NCBI GenBank assembly: GCA_944331895.1
Contig: CALVIX010000006.1
Coordinates: 1,798 to 65,797, forward strand
Reading direction: 5' to 3'
Length of the DNA: 64,000 nt
DNA from: an uncultured Bacilli bacterium
GTDB taxonomy: Bacteria; Bacillota_I; Bacilli_A; RF39; UBA660
Part shown: positions 59,585 to 63,617 of the stretch, one piece after another
How the letters are laid out: each line of letters opens with the position of its first letter
Numbering within the stretch: the stretch's first letter is position 1
The notes under the pieces: generated by a model
Seen by the model: only the letters and a program-made list of their open reading frames with translations
Database searches by the model: none
Told to the model about the DNA's origin: nothing
Position numbers and translations under genes: made by a program

Positions 59585-60637
59585 TCATTCATCTTTCGGC
59601 AATATTTCTTTAAATAGGCATTTATTTTTTATTTGCTTTTGAAAAAAATAGCTATTACAATGATTCGCGTGTGCAATCCATGAATTCCAGCAGGCATTCA
59701 CATGAGTATAAGAAAGTGTCCCATTTAAATAAGATAAATTCCATTTTTTTGCCTTTCTTTTTATTTTTTTGATACTATCTTTTTTTAATAAACGATGCGT
59801 TTCAAAAATACGATAACCACAAAATGTCACTCCCATAGCACTTGGATAATATCGACTTTTTGGATTTAAAGTCAACTTTAATTTTTCTTTTAGAAATGTT
59901 TCTATTTCAAATAATAGTTTTTTCGCATCTACTTTGGTTGGACATAGTATGATAAAGTCGTCCATATATCTAACATAATATCGAATTTGCTTGTTTTCCT
60001 TGATATAATGATCTAATTCGTTCAAATAGATATTTGCAAAAAATTGACTTGTATAATTTCCAATCGGTATTCCTATCTCGCTACAATCATCATAAATTAA
60101 ACACTTGGTAAATCTCAACAAGGCTTGATCACTAATATGCTTTTCCATAATACAATACAAAACATCTTTATCGATAGTATAGAAAAATTTACGTACATCA
60201 CATTTTAAAATATAATAATTTCCATAATGTCGCTTCATAATACGCATGTATTTTTGTAATTGATTTACCCCTTTATGAGTTCCTCTATCATCTAAACACG
60301 CATATGTTTGCAAAATAAACTTAGGCGCTATATATGGCTTTACAAATTCATGTACATACCACTGATGCACCACTCTATCTCGATACGGAAGCGCGCGAAT
60401 CAAACGTTCTTTCGGTTCATAAATCGTAAAATCATGATATTTCCCAATTCTATATTTATTTTCTCTAATATCCTTCACTAAGTTTGCTAAATTAGTTTCC
60501 AAATCTAGTTCAAACTTCATGACAGTAAGTTTTGAATTTTTCGCTTTTTTGGCTCGCTGATGTGCAAGGTACATACGTTCTACTGTCAACTTATCATAAA
60601 ATACATTTTTTATTGTTTTCGGCAAGATTTCATCCAA
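59585..60637 (-). CDS. diversity-generating retroelement reverse transcriptase
   Basis: RT motifs include the DGR-hallmark IGNYTSQ ([ILV]GxxxSQ) and YMDD (RYMDDFIIL). Size is 350 aa. It is directly coupled to the Avd-like ORF and sits next to a TR/VR pair. Confidence 0.9.
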   Translation of the reverse strand: MDEILPKTIKNVFYDKLTVERMYLAHQRAKKAKNSKLTVMKFELDLETNLANLVKDIRENKYRIGKYHDFTIYEPKERLIRALPYRDRVVHQWYVHEFVKPYIAPKFILQTYACLDDRGTHKGVNQLQKYMRIMKRHYGNYYILKCDVRKFFYTIDKDVLYCIMEKHISDQALLRFTKCLIYDDCSEIGIPIGNYTSQFFANIYLNELDHYIKENKQIRYYVRYMDDFIILCPTKVDAKKLLFEIETFLKEKLKLTLNPKSRYYPSAMGVTFCGYRIFETHRLLKKDSIKKIKRKAKKWNLSYLNGTLSYTHVNACWNSWIAHANHCNSYFFQKQIKNKCLFKEILPKDE

Positions 60638-60966
60638 CCACCCATCATATTAGAAATATCTAACATTTTACGACACCACGCGTCATAGTTTCTAGCATTA
60701 ATATATTGATTTTTATATGATAATCTTGCAAGCACTTTCATCATCTTCAATTTAACATCCAACTCATTTAAATATTTCAACTTTTCTATGCGATCGTAAG
60801 ATTTATAACAATATAAAATACACTCCATACCATCATAAGTCACTCGCTTTAGTTCAGTAACAAGTGCAAAACGTTCTGACTTAGGATATTTTTTAGTTAT
60901 CATGTTAATATAATACATTAAATCTAAATATTTTTGATATATTTGTAACTCTTCAATTTCTTTCAT
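60610..60966 (-). CDS. Avd-like accessory variability determinant (four-helix-bundle protein family)
   Basis: 118-aa helical basic protein (LQIYQKYLDLMYYI...PKSERFAL...) resembling the four-helix-bundle / 23S-IVS protein family used as the DGR Avd. It overlaps the RT start by 28 nt. Confidence 0.75.
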   Translation of the reverse strand: MKEIEELQIYQKYLDLMYYINMITKKYPKSERFALVTELKRVTYDGMECILYCYKSYDRIEKLKYLNELDVKLKMMKVLARLSYKNQYINARNYDAWCRKMLDISNMMGGWMKSCRKQ

Positions 60967-61340
60967 TTTAACACCTCTTGTAATTCATATAAAATAGTGA
61001 GTGCATCTATCGGCTTAATTTCATCGAAATTTATCTTTTTAATCTCTTTTAATTTTTTTAATACGCTATGATCGACCGTTACTTGAGCATCTTCTTTTTC
61101 GATGATTTTATAGTCAATCCCTATCTCATTTAAAAGCTTCACATATTTTGCCTTACTATTTTGTGGAAAACCGCACTTATTTACTTCATCTGTAAATTTA
61201 GTCTGCTTTAACCCTAATTTTTTACTTAAATATGCAGAATCCTCTGCCAAAAAAATATAAAATATTCCACTATGAAACAAATAATACTTTTCAGGATTTT
61301 CGTTTTTTAGCTCTAAATATTTCTTATACAACTTACTCAT
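60963..61340 (-). CDS. mini MutS-like protein (MutS domain I-like N-terminus plus MutS C-terminal-tail-like helix), DGR accessory candidate
   Basis: LYKKYLELKNENPEKYYLFHSGIFYIFLAEDS...LGL..TK...CGFP....KYVKLL...G parallels MutS domain I ([30 protein letters not shown]...L.I.LT...AGIP....NYLAKL). An ATGA overlap joins it to the avd start. Confidence 0.6.
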   Translation of the reverse strand: MSKLYKKYLELKNENPEKYYLFHSGIFYIFLAEDSAYLSKKLGLKQTKFTDEVNKCGFPQNSKAKYVKLLNEIGIDYKIIEKEDAQVTVDHSVLKKLKEIKKINFDEIKPIDALTILYELQEVLK

Positions 61341-61547
61341 GTTACCCCCTATACAAAAAATAAACAGTAGAAAAACTCATACTGCTTATCTCCATATATC
61401 ACGACATTCACCATTTTGCTACTAGCCGTCACATATTATTTAAATGTTTATTTACTACTGTAAAATGGATATAGTCTTCTAAGATAAATATTTTTCATTT
61501 AGTCCTTGAACTAATTTTAAAACTACTACTACTATCATACCATAGTC

Positions 61548-61663
61548 TCCGGCGACAACGACTGCGCGAGAACCGTTGTTCGTCCAAGCGTTCCCAGTAT
61601 TGCGATTCACATTGAACAATCCAGCATTACTGCCATTGTTCGCGTTACCACCACGGTTCACCC
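61548..61663 (-). repeat. DGR template repeat (TR)
   Basis: 116 nt matching 61914-62029 at a constant offset of 366 nt. In the VR reading frame it carries 11 AAY (Asn) codons. It is GC-rich relative to its surroundings. Confidence 0.9.
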
Positions 61664-61801
61664 GCGAAAAAATCAACAACGAGTCAACACTTTTCAAAAC
61701 TATACCCGTATTCAAATTATTAATATATTTTTTATCTTGCCACTTACGCAAAGAAAACCAAAGTTTTCAATAATCTTAACCGATCTTATTTAACGTTTTT
61801 C

Positions 61802-61837: not shown

Positions 61838-61898
61838 CGTTATTTATCAAATTATTAAATTATTAGTGTTTATTCTTCCATACAAAAGCTTAAGTTAA

Positions 61899-61911
61899 TA
61901 TCGCTTCGCGA
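61899..61911 (-). promoter_or_regulatory. short GC hairpin immediately 3' of VR (candidate DGR target-site hairpin)
   Basis: Minus strand: atcgc-gaa-gcgat, a 5-bp stem with a GAA triloop. It starts at the target stop codon, directly after the GC-rich VR 3' end. Confidence 0.45.
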
Positions 61912-63558
61912 TTATCCGGCGACAACGACTGCGCGAGAACCGTAGGGCGTCCAAGCGTTCCCAGTACCGCGATACACAACGAACAATCCAGCAAGACTGC
62001 CACCGTGCGCGTAACCACCACGGGACACCCATACGCAAGTAGTACAATCGGAGTAACTTCCTGGCATCAATGTATAATCATTATACCAATTTTGATTATT
62101 TCCAGACGTTTTCTTTCTCGTTTCTTTCATTGCGTCTCCCAATTTACTGATATTAAAGTTATGTAGGTCTGTATTATATGCATACTCATCATAGTATTTA
62201 CTCTCTGGTTTACTTGAAAATCCAGAACTAGCAGAAACAAAAGTTCCATCTTGATTTACAACCGATGCAACAACTCGCTCCCATACACCTCCACTCATAT
62301 CGTAGATTCCATATATATTTCCAGTAGTACTTGCGTTCACTCCCGCATTTTTATAATCTCTTCCTGGTTCACAAGCCGTCATATTATTTTTTACTCCGAC
62401 ACTCGCACTCGTTCCGGCACATCCTGTAATACTAGGCCCCCATTGTACTCCATTATTTTCTACTCCTGTACCTGTATTGACATTATTGATCCATACTTCT
62501 CCATTTTTACCATATTTTGAATGAGATAAGTAAGCCACTGCTCCCCATTCACTATTCTTCATCATATGAGCATCATAGCTTGTAAGTCCATATTCACCAT
62601 TTGTTGAAAACAATCGTATCGTATTCCATGCGGTTGATATATTTTGGTTCGTTAGTGATTTCTGATTTGGTTTTGTTGTTGGGGCACCTCCGGCTCCGGT
62701 TAGTTCAAACTTCCCTACCCATATTCCATTTAATTCCGTATTTCCAAATGTAAACGCTGGGTGTGTTAGCCATTCTCCATTTTTCGTTCCATTCTTTTTG
62801 TTTTCACCACTCGTCTCAAATTCAATATTGATTGTTTGCTCGTTTGAAACTCCATTTTCTGCATTCCACAATTGGTATCGATATCTTGGTACATATACGA
62901 AATAAGCTAATATATCATTTTCATCAATGATGGTTCCTGGGGTATTCTGGTAATTACTTCTGCTTGCACTCGTTACACTTACTGCATTCGCCCATTTCTT
63001 CTCGTCATAGTTATACCATTCTTTGGTTGTATCTGCCACTACTGTATTTCCACTACTATCGAATGTAACTGGTATCATTCCTTCTTTAACATCTACTATG
63101 ATGTTGCCATTTGAGTTTTCTTTACATTCTCCTACATTTATTTCTTCCCATTCGTTATGATTCATTTGAAATCCGTACCCTGATATTACTATGCATGACC
63201 CGTTTCCTACCGTTCCATCTATAATATTCAAATTATGCCGTTCTGGTTTGGTTCCTTTATAATTCATTACCCTACTTCCTGCACTTGCAATATTTCCGTT
63301 ATTCATACGTTTTGTAAACATAACCTGTCCTACATTCGTCTGTATCGCACTTGGTGAAATGGTCGTATCTTTGATCATTTCGGTTGCGATTGTATTTTCT
63401 AACGCTTTGACATAACCATAAGCACCATTCTTAGCCGATCCCTTTCTAGCGTCGTCGATTACTCCCATAATTAAAGGTGTTGCGATCAATGCAATGACTG
63501 CTAAAATTACGATAACCGCTAACAATTCGATCAACGTAAATCCTTTTTCTTCCCTCAT
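61912..63558 (-). CDS. DGR target protein: prepilin-type N-terminus + FGE-sulfatase/C-type-lectin-fold C-terminal domain carrying the VR
   Basis: The N-terminus MREEKG|FTLIELLAVIVILAVIALIA is a class III (type IV pilin-like) signal with Glu+5. The C-terminal domain has GIYDMSGGVWERV and RGG...NAW motifs typical of FGE-like DGR variable proteins. Confidence 0.9.
   Translation of the reverse strand: MREEKGFTLIELLAVIVILAVIALIATPLIMGVIDDARKGSAKNGAYGYVKALENTIATEMIKDTTISPSAIQTNVGQVMFTKRMNNGNIASAGSRVMNYKGTKPERHNLNIIDGTVGNGSCIVISGYGFQMNHNEWEEINVGECKENSNGNIIVDVKEGMIPVTFDSSGNTVVADTTKEWYNYDEKKWANAVSVTSASRSNYQNTPGTIIDENDILAYFVYVPRYRYQLWNAENGVSNEQTINIEFETSGENKKNGTKNGEWLTHPAFTFGNTELNGIWVGKFELTGAGGAPTTKPNQKSLTNQNISTAWNTIRLFSTNGEYGLTSYDAHMMKNSEWGAVAYLSHSKYGKNGEVWINNVNTGTGVENNGVQWGPSITGCAGTSASVGVKNNMTACEPGRDYKNAGVNASTTGNIYGIYDMSGGVWERVVASVVNQDGTFVSASSGFSSKPESKYYDEYAYNTDLHNFNISKLGDAMKETRKKTSGNNQNWYNDYTLMPGSYSDCTTCVWVSRGGYAHGGSLAGLFVVYRGTGNAWTPYGSRAVVVAG
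61914..62030 (-). repeat. DGR variable repeat (VR), 3' end of the target gene
   Basis: It aligns to TR with 16 mismatches, all at TR adenines on the coding strand. It encodes ...VSRGGYAHGGSLAGLFVVYRGTGNAWTPYGSRAVVVAG*. Coordinates are +/-1 nt. Confidence 0.9.
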
Positions 63559-63588
63559 TCTCTCCCTACTTTCTTATCATATATTTTG

Positions 63589-63617
63589 ATTATACCCCCC
63601 TCAGGCATATTTGTCAA
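63589..63617 (-). promoter_or_regulatory. consensus sigma-A promoter upstream of the DGR target gene
   Basis: Minus strand: TTGACA (63612-63617), a 17-nt spacer, then TATAAT (63589-63594). A GGGAG RBS lies before the ATG at 63558. Confidence 0.7.

Follow-up and report, generated by a model that had tools for sequence, protein, structure and literature searches.

A cassette of genes and repeats, all encoded on the minus strand, lies within a 64-kb stretch (hereafter the window) of contig CALVIX010000006.1, from an uncultured Bacilli bacterium. Its features make it very probable that the cassette is a complete chromosomal diversity-generating retroelement (DGR) of the type that includes a mutS-like (MSL) gene, and that it diversifies a pilin-like adhesin in a host close to Candidatus Fimihabitans intestinipullorum. 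The order is as the preliminary description had it: a promoter-like site, the target gene with its variable repeat (VR), the template repeat (TR), MSL, Avd and the reverse transcriptase (RT) gene. We found no further open reading frames (ORFs) within the cassette, an HRDC gene included, and no predicted terminator after the RT gene. In every strain examined, the cassette sits between rpsF-ssb-rpsR (rpsR encoding S18) and the S10 leader and operon, with no phage genes near it; in the window this leader is an S10-Clostridia ribosomal protein leader (RF03136; 59318–59423, minus strand; 38.7 bits, above the gathering score) upstream of rpsJ. Judged from sequence similarity, the host is close to Ca. 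Fimihabitans intestinipullorum (order RF39), of the chicken gut. Candidatus Fimihabitans is a genus of chicken-gut metagenome-assembled genomes (MAGs) in order RF39, family CAG-822 (PMC8035907).

The two repeats carry the central evidence. The TR (61548–61663, minus strand) is 116 nt long and contains 28 adenines and, in the target frame, 11 AAY codons; the VR (61915–62030, minus strand), also of 116 nt, codes for the final 39 residues of the target. They align without gaps at an offset of 367, and 16 of the 116 positions differ. The preliminary description had the TR in its right place but put the VR one base off, at 61914–62029, and gave the offset as 366, at which an ungapped alignment yields noise. 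Its mismatch count is borne out on careful alignment: all 16 differences fall on TR adenines of the minus strand (T on the plus strand), and none of the 88 non-A positions differs (hypergeometric P = 1.8e-12 for 16 of 16 mismatches on A, given 28 A in 116 nt). The substitutions comprise six A-to-T, five A-to-C and five A-to-G changes. In the target frame the TR translates as RVNRGGNANNGSNAGLFNVNRNTGNAWTNNGSRAVVVAG, and a recount again finds ten of its 11 AAY codons altered in the VR, to S, Y, H, G, L, V, Y, G, (N kept), P and Y, at codon positions 1 and 2 only. NNY at the 11 AAY codons allows 15^11 variants (about 8.6e12, as had been estimated), and the additional A-containing codons AGT, ACT and ACG could lift the number to roughly 5.5e14. 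The TR has a G+C content of 53%, against 33% for the window. A scan of the whole window that treated TR adenines as wildcards matched the TR and the single VR, with no second VR. The TR is also spanned by a 90-amino acid ORF (61479–61751, minus strand) in the same frame as the target C terminus, and public gene calls annotate such an ORF in two related assemblies (66–90 amino acids in L001 and L002); because the TR copies coding sequence, we consider this ORF an artefact.

The RT gene (59585–60637, minus strand) encodes a 350-amino acid RVT_1 (Pfam) protein from a TTG start at 60637; an alternative TTG at 60625 would give 346 amino acids. Its best relative among solved RTs is the 328-amino acid RT of Protein Data Bank (PDB) entry 8ub7 (E 2.6e-49, 172 bits), which we take to be bRT of Bordetella phage BPP-1, and other RT classes among the solved structures score lower, the best group II intron RT reaching 61 bits and retron-type RTs 59 bits. 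In the alignment with bRT, IGNYTSQ stands opposite IGSLTSQ, and both enzymes have YMDD; the SQ motif is typical of DGR RTs. NCBIfam models for group II, retron and Drt RTs all fall far below their cutoffs on this protein, and among PADLOC defence models the RT has only generic resemblances to RT and DRT entries, with no match to Avd, MSL or the target. Alignment scores against solved RTs thus support the grouping of this enzyme with DGR RTs, in agreement with its first assignment.

Upstream of the RT gene lie two accessory genes. Avd (60610–60966, minus strand; 118 amino acids) matches Pfam bAvd (E 2.3e-19, 70 bits against a cutoff of 40), so the Avd-like ORF was rightly named. MSL (60963–61340, minus strand; 125 amino acids) consists of MutS domain I only: the ORF described earlier as mutS-like is a genuine MutS_I-domain protein (Pfam MutS_I E 1.9e-9, above the cutoff) and corresponds to the published MSL gene (PMC5758913). 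Its alignment covers residues 16–96 of Thermus aquaticus (Taq) MutS. All 24 family members have the Phe of the motif G-x-F-Y-[I/L/T], and in every one of them another residue stands in place of the Glu of the MutS Phe-x-Glu motif; by this alignment, the Phe that stacks on mismatches in MutS domain I is kept in MSL. The overlapping starts and stops noted before amount to 4 nt between MSL and Avd and to 28 nt between Avd and RT, which suggests coupled translation.

Cis elements and structured RNA around the repeats

The putative promoter that had been proposed upstream of the target gene (63589–63617, minus strand) combines TTGACA, a 17-nt spacer and TATAAT; it agrees with the sigma-70 consensus at 12 of 12 positions, the best in the region, and is named by this consensus match only. 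At the other end of the target gene, a hairpin, ATCGC-GAA-GCGAT (61900–61912, minus strand), starts with the final base of the stop codon, immediately after the VR, and no comparable hairpin stands 3′ of the TR in the window. Its core, GCGAAGC, is a notably stable DNA mini-hairpin. Across 14 non-redundant related loci, the 36 nt 3′ of the VR fold at a mean of −5.4 kcal/mol, compared with −1.35 kcal/mol for the 36 nt after the TR and −1.23 kcal/mol for random 36-mers (Wilcoxon P 8.5e-4 and 1.2e-4, respectively). The position of these hairpins is kept from locus to locus, their stem sequences are unrelated and their loops comprise 3–4 nt. BPP-1 needs a hairpin/cruciform downstream of its VR for efficient retrohoming (PMC3240598), and by analogy the window hairpin would match that target element.

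The 3′ 28 nt of the VR (61915–61942, minus strand; 68% G+C) are identical to TR positions 61548–61575. This block is invariant in the three strains compared (below): the last mutated adenine in any of them is TR index 87, and the TR adenines at indexes 100 and 115 are never altered. It occupies the position of the initiation of mutagenic homing (IMH) element of BPP-1, and by that analogy it may be the complementary DNA (cDNA) integration site.

Several RNA structures are predicted around the TR. Between VR and TR, a stem-loop (61804–61835, minus strand) has an 11-bp core stem, which the fold extends to 13 bp, and a U-rich loop, UCUCUUUUUG; it folds at −13.6 kcal/mol (z −6.9), is followed by no U-tail and recurs in most of the related loci examined, where the stem differs and the loop is of a similar, CTCTTTTT type. 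The TR itself is bracketed by a 9–10-bp long-range pairing, the 5′ arm of which, CGGGUAUAGU (61699–61708, minus strand), pairs with the 3′ arm, ACUAUAUCCA (61466–61475, minus strand). This duplex covaries across the TR units of related loci: of 55 distinct units tabulated, 33 pair along the full length of the arms, as exemplified by the arm pairs GGGATTAGA/TCTAATTCC, AGGTTATAGG/TCTATGACCT and AGAATTTAAA/TTTAAATTCT.

Directly 3′ of the TR, an Rfam match and a covariance model define a structured, spacer-like DGR RNA domain (61391–61547, minus strand), consisting of a TR-adjacent stem-loop, the 3′ duplex arm, a small hairpin, an A-rich linker and a terminal hairpin, the loop of which, UAGUAGCAAAAUGGUGAA, is conserved. 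In an alignment of this RNA from 14 loci, 89.9% of the cells in three helices are paired, compared with 36–53% in slid controls, and compensatory changes occur in 14 of the 17 pairs of these helices. A covariance model built from the alignment (R1) scores 100 bits at 61391–61488. The Rfam match is to RT-14 (RF02921, one of the motifs RT-1 to RT-19 of Weinberg et al. 2017) at 61393–61528, with 36.6 bits against a gathering score of 48.1. At gathering thresholds, Rfam gave zero matches in 17 related loci, and at permissive thresholds sub-threshold RT-14 and RT-9 only; these matches follow the TR in the relatives, those with a TR downstream of the RT gene included. With RT-14 the window RNA shares the order of helices, the UAGUA...GAA terminal loop and an adjoining RT gene, and it differs in scoring below threshold and in lying immediately after a TR. 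Weinberg et al. assigned RT-10 to the TR–RT spacer of BPP-1 and speculated that other RT motifs are also parts of DGRs (PMC5737381); the position of RT-14-like RNAs directly 3′ of the TR supports that speculation for RNAs of this kind. Between the DGR RNA and MSL, a terminator-like hairpin is followed by a U-run (61354–61385, minus strand; z −5.9). A consensus scanner does not list it, and related loci have GCAGTAC...GTACTGC and then a T-run at the same position.

Cryogenic-electron microscopy of the BPP-1 DGR RNA has defined a cPRT Stop duplex, an Avd-binding stem-loop, a Thumb Ring and a bRT-binding stem-loop (bioRxiv 10.1101/2023.10.23.563531). The layout of the window RNA (distal duplex, stem-loop, A-rich strand and terminal stem-loop) seems to parallel this arrangement, and the two may match element by element.

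The target protein and its two modules

The target gene (61912–63558, minus strand; stop codon TAA at 61912–61914) encodes a variable protein of 548 amino acids. Among 8000 candidates scored, 7884 are homologues at E<1e-5, and the nearest public one, 98% identical, is annotated as a ‘type II secretion system protein’ of Candidatus Fimihabitans intestinipullorum. The preliminary description correctly gave this protein a VR at its C terminus but overlooked the prepilin-type nature of its N terminus. Residues 1–63 (63370–63558, minus strand) form a prepilin-type leader and a long N-terminal pilin helix. Residues 1–26 match the prepilin N-terminal methylation motif (Pfam N_methyl E 1.6e-7; TIGR02532 above cutoff), with weak matches of the GspG and ComGC models to the same terminus. 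The leader, MREEKG–FTLIE (MREEKG–FTLIELLAVIVILAVIALIA), is a class III signal with G−1, F+1 and E+5, followed by a hydrophobic helix.

A family profile of the target, built from 17 pilin-type members, was run against solved structures. Its N-terminal part matches MshA (5e-10, positions 1–104), PilE1 (8e-10) and several PilA and GspG chains, with residue 1 of the solved mature pilins aligned to F7 of the target, and positions 264–443 of the same profile match the variable protein TaqVP (5vf4; E 0.002). An AlphaFold model of the target built on 47 sequences (predicted local distance difference test (pLDDT) score 86.6; predicted template modelling (pTM) score 0.75) comprises a helix (residues 9–63), a small β domain (residues 67–140) and a large C-terminal domain; the β domain may correspond to a pilin head, and the MshA match extends into it, to about residue 104. 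The C-terminal domain (61915–63081, minus strand; residues ~160–548) is a predicted ligand-binding domain with a C-type-lectin / formylglycine-generating enzyme (FGE)-like fold. In a Foldseek search of the PDB with the model, TaqVP 5vf4 ranks first (E 1.5e-10, probability 1.0), then TvpA 2y3c (E 1.7e-3) and the sulfoxide synthases EgtB and OvoA. TaqVP and TvpA likewise carry their VR at the extreme C terminus; they differ in sharing only 12–17% sequence identity with the target, and their deposited chains are without a pilin-type N-terminal module. Because the profile, model and Foldseek matches agree, we describe the target as bimodular, a type IV pilin module joined to a domain of C-type-lectin / FGE-like fold. 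The variable codons would lie on the ligand-binding face of this predicted fold. Outside the VR, the variable blocks of the target are residues 61–100, 141–160, 381–400 and 441–500 (entropy 0.3–0.56 bits), one of which falls in the putative pilin head, and most other blocks have about 0.1 bits or less; since no TR covers these blocks, their variation is not DGR-driven.

A number of observations weigh against the reading of the cassette as an active DGR with a pilin-like target. The NCBIfam model DivGenRetAVD gives Avd 74.8, slightly below its cutoff of 80; the folding energy of the VR-adjacent hairpin, taken alone, is unexceptional (z −0.99); the RT-14 match is sub-threshold; and the sole other copy of the exact sequence, in assembly L001, carries the same VR. 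As to the pilus, neither prepilin peptidase nor pilus assembly genes were found in the window or in the related loci examined, several related DGR targets have a plain membrane anchor in place of a prepilin leader, and distant pilin-type homologues (42–50% identical) occur without a DGR or RT within 6 kb. Two such homologues, in L009 (6001–7623; 50% identical) and L010 (6001–7665; 42% identical), have particular neighbours: one adjoins a sortase gene and the other lies ~3–4.5 kb from F-ENA (endospore appendage) and CotZ genes. It follows that proteins of the pilin–lectin family either occur independently of DGRs as well or are targeted in trans.

The points about the pilus bear on an alternative that we take seriously although we doubt it, namely that the DGR works but the target, in place of forming part of a pilus, is a surface receptor that uses its prepilin-like N terminus only as a membrane anchor or export signal. 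No second gene with a prepilin motif occurs in the window or the related loci, pilus machinery is equally missing there, and at 548 amino acids the target is far above typical pilin size. Five related targets (L017, L021, L026, L038 and L039) use ordinary N-terminal transmembrane anchors, suggesting that the type of anchor is interchangeable. However, the signal is a textbook class III one, its motif is invariant in the pilin-type family, and homology to assembled type IV pilins continues past the leader (in the case of MshA, up to residue ~104). In Streptococcus sanguinis, type IV pilins of a bulky, ‘modular’ kind that bear adhesin modules are known, which also counts against a mere anchor. 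Among the relatives, prepilin leaders are found in the targets of L012–L014, L024, L030 and L032 and probably of L036 (AFTLVE, missed by the strict pattern).

Turnover of the variable repeat among strains

We compared the window with two sister strains on the same backbone (L002/L004 and L006), the three assemblies being 97–98% identical over the locus. The TR is 100% identical in all three, with zero differences across 61288–61942, and the target proteins are identical outside the VR. Within the VR, L002/L004 differs from the window at 17 positions, 16 of them TR-A sites, and L006 at 15, all of them TR-A sites. Variation between related isolates is thus found where the adenine mechanism places it, with the TR constant, and adenine-restricted VR turnover between strains is shown. 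An identical TR and target backbone with three different VRs implies retrohoming after a very recent split.

The same pattern holds more widely. Among 27 full-length family members of at least 85% identity, 26 VRs are distinct, and entropy is 2.4–3.0 bits at each of the 11 AAY codons (6–11 amino acids); most other VR codons are near 0 bits, and the A-containing codons ACT and ACG (T532 and T537) and AGT (S521) are intermediate, at 1.0–1.5 bits. In strain L007, non-A changes in the TR relative to the window reappear in the VR of L007, and ten of ten TR/VR differences are at A. The mirroring of these TR changes in the VR gives direct evidence that information passes from the TR to the VR. An exact-sequence look-up of the RT returned one contig only, 100% identical, and is uninformative on VR variation.

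Comparison of L002 with L007 also brought out a separate pattern of exchange. The flanks of L002 5000–7000 and L007 6000–8000 are 100% identical, including MSL-Avd-RT and ribosomal genes, and identity is just 80–91% across the target gene, the VR–TR spacer and part of the TR; both haplotype alleles co-occur in the metagenomes ERZ27234809 and ERZ4883045. The whole target-plus-TR module appears, from these alignments, to have been swapped by recombination between the two haplotypes.

These comparisons also bear on the possibility that the DGR was formerly active in the lineage and is now silent in the window strain, its VR being a frozen record of past retrohoming. The identical VR of the other assembly with the exact sequence fits that view, and decay of the locus does occur. 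In L002, L004, L007 and L012, the lineage of the reference MAG of Ca. Fimihabitans intestinipullorum, RT residue 299 is changed from TGG to TGA (equivalent to window position 59741; L002 ~8816–8818). The change removes the last 52 RT residues (bRT residues ~287–328), and the frame downstream is still open. The only non-A TR/VR mismatch among the strains compared is in L002/L004, and one VR allele of this lineage, P0001, is identical on about ten contigs. These features are consistent with an element that is inactivated or strongly attenuated in the TGA-299 lineage. In the window, by contrast, the RT is full length with intact motifs; Avd, MSL, the promoter-like site, the hairpin and the RNA elements are intact; 88 of 88 non-A TR/VR positions match; and three strains with one backbone and one TR have three VRs. 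Silence in the window strain is therefore unlikely. The earlier statement that the element is active or recently active holds for recent activity, as seen in the VRs of the sister strains; present activity of the window element we infer from its intact parts.

The reading of TGA as a stop was itself examined. NCBI taxonomy puts Fimihabitans under Mycoplasmatota, and we considered genetic code 4 (TGA = Trp) because of this lineage, since it would render the RT nonsense codon of the sister lineage silent. We rejected it: long ORFs of the window contain 131 TGG codons, and TGA terminates eight of 57 long ORFs, that of the RT included.

Proposed mechanism, known systems and related loci

By analogy with phage BPP-1, we propose that a TR-carrying RNA reaching at least from 61708 to 61391 would fold into a long-range duplex around the TR, followed by the structured 3′ domain. 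An Avd–RT complex would bind this RNA and copy the TR to cDNA, misincorporating opposite adenines. The cDNA would then replace the VR, perhaps guided by the shared 28-nt G+C-rich 3′ block, and the hairpin found only at the VR may mark it as the recipient. MSL probably acts on the mismatch-dense cDNA:VR heteroduplex, for instance by shielding it from host mismatch repair. In Bacteroides, host MutS restrains retrohoming, in an all-or-nothing manner (bioRxiv 10.1101/2024.11.15.621889), which would make a heteroduplex-protecting role for MSL plausible. The outcome would be random NNY at the 11 Asn positions and at up to three other codons of the C-type-lectin-fold domain, in a hypervariable adhesin presumably processed by prepilin peptidase and displayed on the cell surface or a pilus. 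In this scheme, the RNA–protein contacts, the part played by MSL and display on a pilus are inferred.

Gene order and mechanism are already catalogued and not new, and the understanding of how DGRs work is left unchanged. MSL was defined as an accessory gene present in 16 of 372 DGRs, each of which has Avd and none of which has HRDC, an arrangement termed Architecture D; its published length ranges from 112 to 283 amino acids, and the Legionella pneumophila DGR is a member (Wu, Zimmerly and colleagues, NAR 2018, PMC5758913). Like these, the window element is chromosomal, has Avd and an MSL within the length range (125 amino acids), lacks HRDC and keeps to one strand. It differs in residing in an uncultured RF39 gut bacterium, in the type IV prepilin leader of its target and in having TR-flanking RNA elements mapped by covariation. 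The target of the Legionella DGR is a lipoprotein. With the BPP-1 DGR (Mtd, Avd, TR, bRT), the window element shares adenine-specific transfer from TR to VR, a homologous RT (172 bits) with IGxxxSQ and YMDD motifs, an Avd partner, a gene for a C-type-lectin-fold protein that has the VR at its 3′ end, a hairpin just beyond the VR (PMC3240598) and, around the TR, a distal duplex and structured downstream RNA. Unlike that phage system, it is chromosomal, has its TR before the accessory genes and carries an extra MSL; in addition, its hairpin has a GAA triloop, and its RNA resembles RT-14, not RT-10 (PMC5737381).

That the cassette is part of a prophage and its target a phage receptor-binding protein for tropism switching is very improbable: the first DGRs were found in phages, and homologues of the RT are detectable in 154 phage records, the nearest from known DGR-bearing phages, but even the best is only ~37% identical, the cassette lies between rpsR and the S10 leader in every strain examined with no phage genes nearby, and the leader of the target is of bacterial prepilin type. 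That the repeats are an ordinary duplication or gene-conversion tract with an adenine pattern arising by chance can be dismissed, since nothing beyond the existence of a repeat favours it, the pattern has a P of 1.8e-12 and recurs independently in sister strains and 19 related loci, and genes for a DGR-type RT and Avd are adjacent.

A further parallel is found in Bacteroides, where DGRs with Avd, some also with Msl, diversify the tip adhesins of type V pili (Macadangdang et al., bioRxiv 10.1101/2024.11.15.621889). Those elements are likewise chromosomal, in gut commensals, and diversify the C terminus of a pilus-associated adhesin; they differ in that their pili are type V (FimA-like) and their hosts Bacteroidota, whereas the window element has a type IV (prepilin peptidase-dependent) module, belongs to a Bacilli lineage and is known from sequence alone. 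A survey mentions a GspG-type pilin domain among DGR targets in one line (PMC11661182), and beyond that sentence we found no literature on DGRs together with prepilins, pseudopilins or type IV pili.

A scan for the RT in one genome per species gave 30 related loci, mostly from gut MAGs labelled uncultured Bacilli or Tenericutes, with RTs 51–94% identical to that of the window and one outlier at 30%. The order MSL-Avd-RT is present in most loci with enough flanking sequence, and adenine-specific TR/VR pairs were found in 19 of the 30 (the window not counted). In some relatives, tandem arrays of 6 to 12 or more units, each ~313–340 nt long, stand beside a single RT gene: L022 ~2900–8463, L019 ~2440–5743, L025 ~2200–5654 and L021 ~3170–5158. 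A unit comprises an upstream duplex arm of its own, an AAY-rich TR distinct from those of the other units, and the conserved 3′ RNA. Of the 12 units of L022, a single one has the VR present in the locus as its cognate (10 of 11 mismatches at A), and the others differ from that VR at 20–40 non-A positions. Surveys mention DGRs with two to six TRs (PMC6642488), and we found no description in the literature of TR–RNA arrays like these four.

We tentatively put forward, as a bolder reading that could well prove wrong, that in the target a true type IV pilin, of modular build, carries a DGR-randomized lectin domain and that the TR–RNA arrays of the relatives form a multi-template system. Were this so, a reduced-genome RF39 gut bacterium would show a randomized lectin domain on a type IV (or Com-type) filament in ~1e13 to 1e14 variants, a little-explored pairing of hypermutation with type IV pili, and arrays of up to 12 templates beside one RT would amount to multi-template diversification. 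The most promising lead, these arrays of 6–12 distinct TR-plus-RNA units beside a single RT, lies outside the window. For DGR biology, the window element itself offers a clean natural example, uncommonly well supported as to recent activity, with three very close strains that share one TR and have three VRs, a lineage with an RT nonsense codon, a TR duplex and 3′ RNA that covariation supports, and an MSL gene. In gut microbiology, it draws attention to a hypervariable adhesin, probably carried on a pilus, in RF39, an uncultured lineage of small genomes.

Elsewhere in the window, although NCBI taxonomy places the organism in Mycoplasmatota, two genes encode a CotZ-like spore coat protein (14112–14561, plus strand) and a SleB/CwlJ-type cell wall hydrolase (19833–20270, plus strand). 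An Amidase_3 protein with four LysM repeats (Pfam; 20293–21501, minus strand) has, by eye, an apparent paralogue at 23896–25107 (minus strand). An Abi_2 (abortive-infection-like) protein (29791–30723, minus strand; Pfam E 2e-42) stands alone among housekeeping genes.

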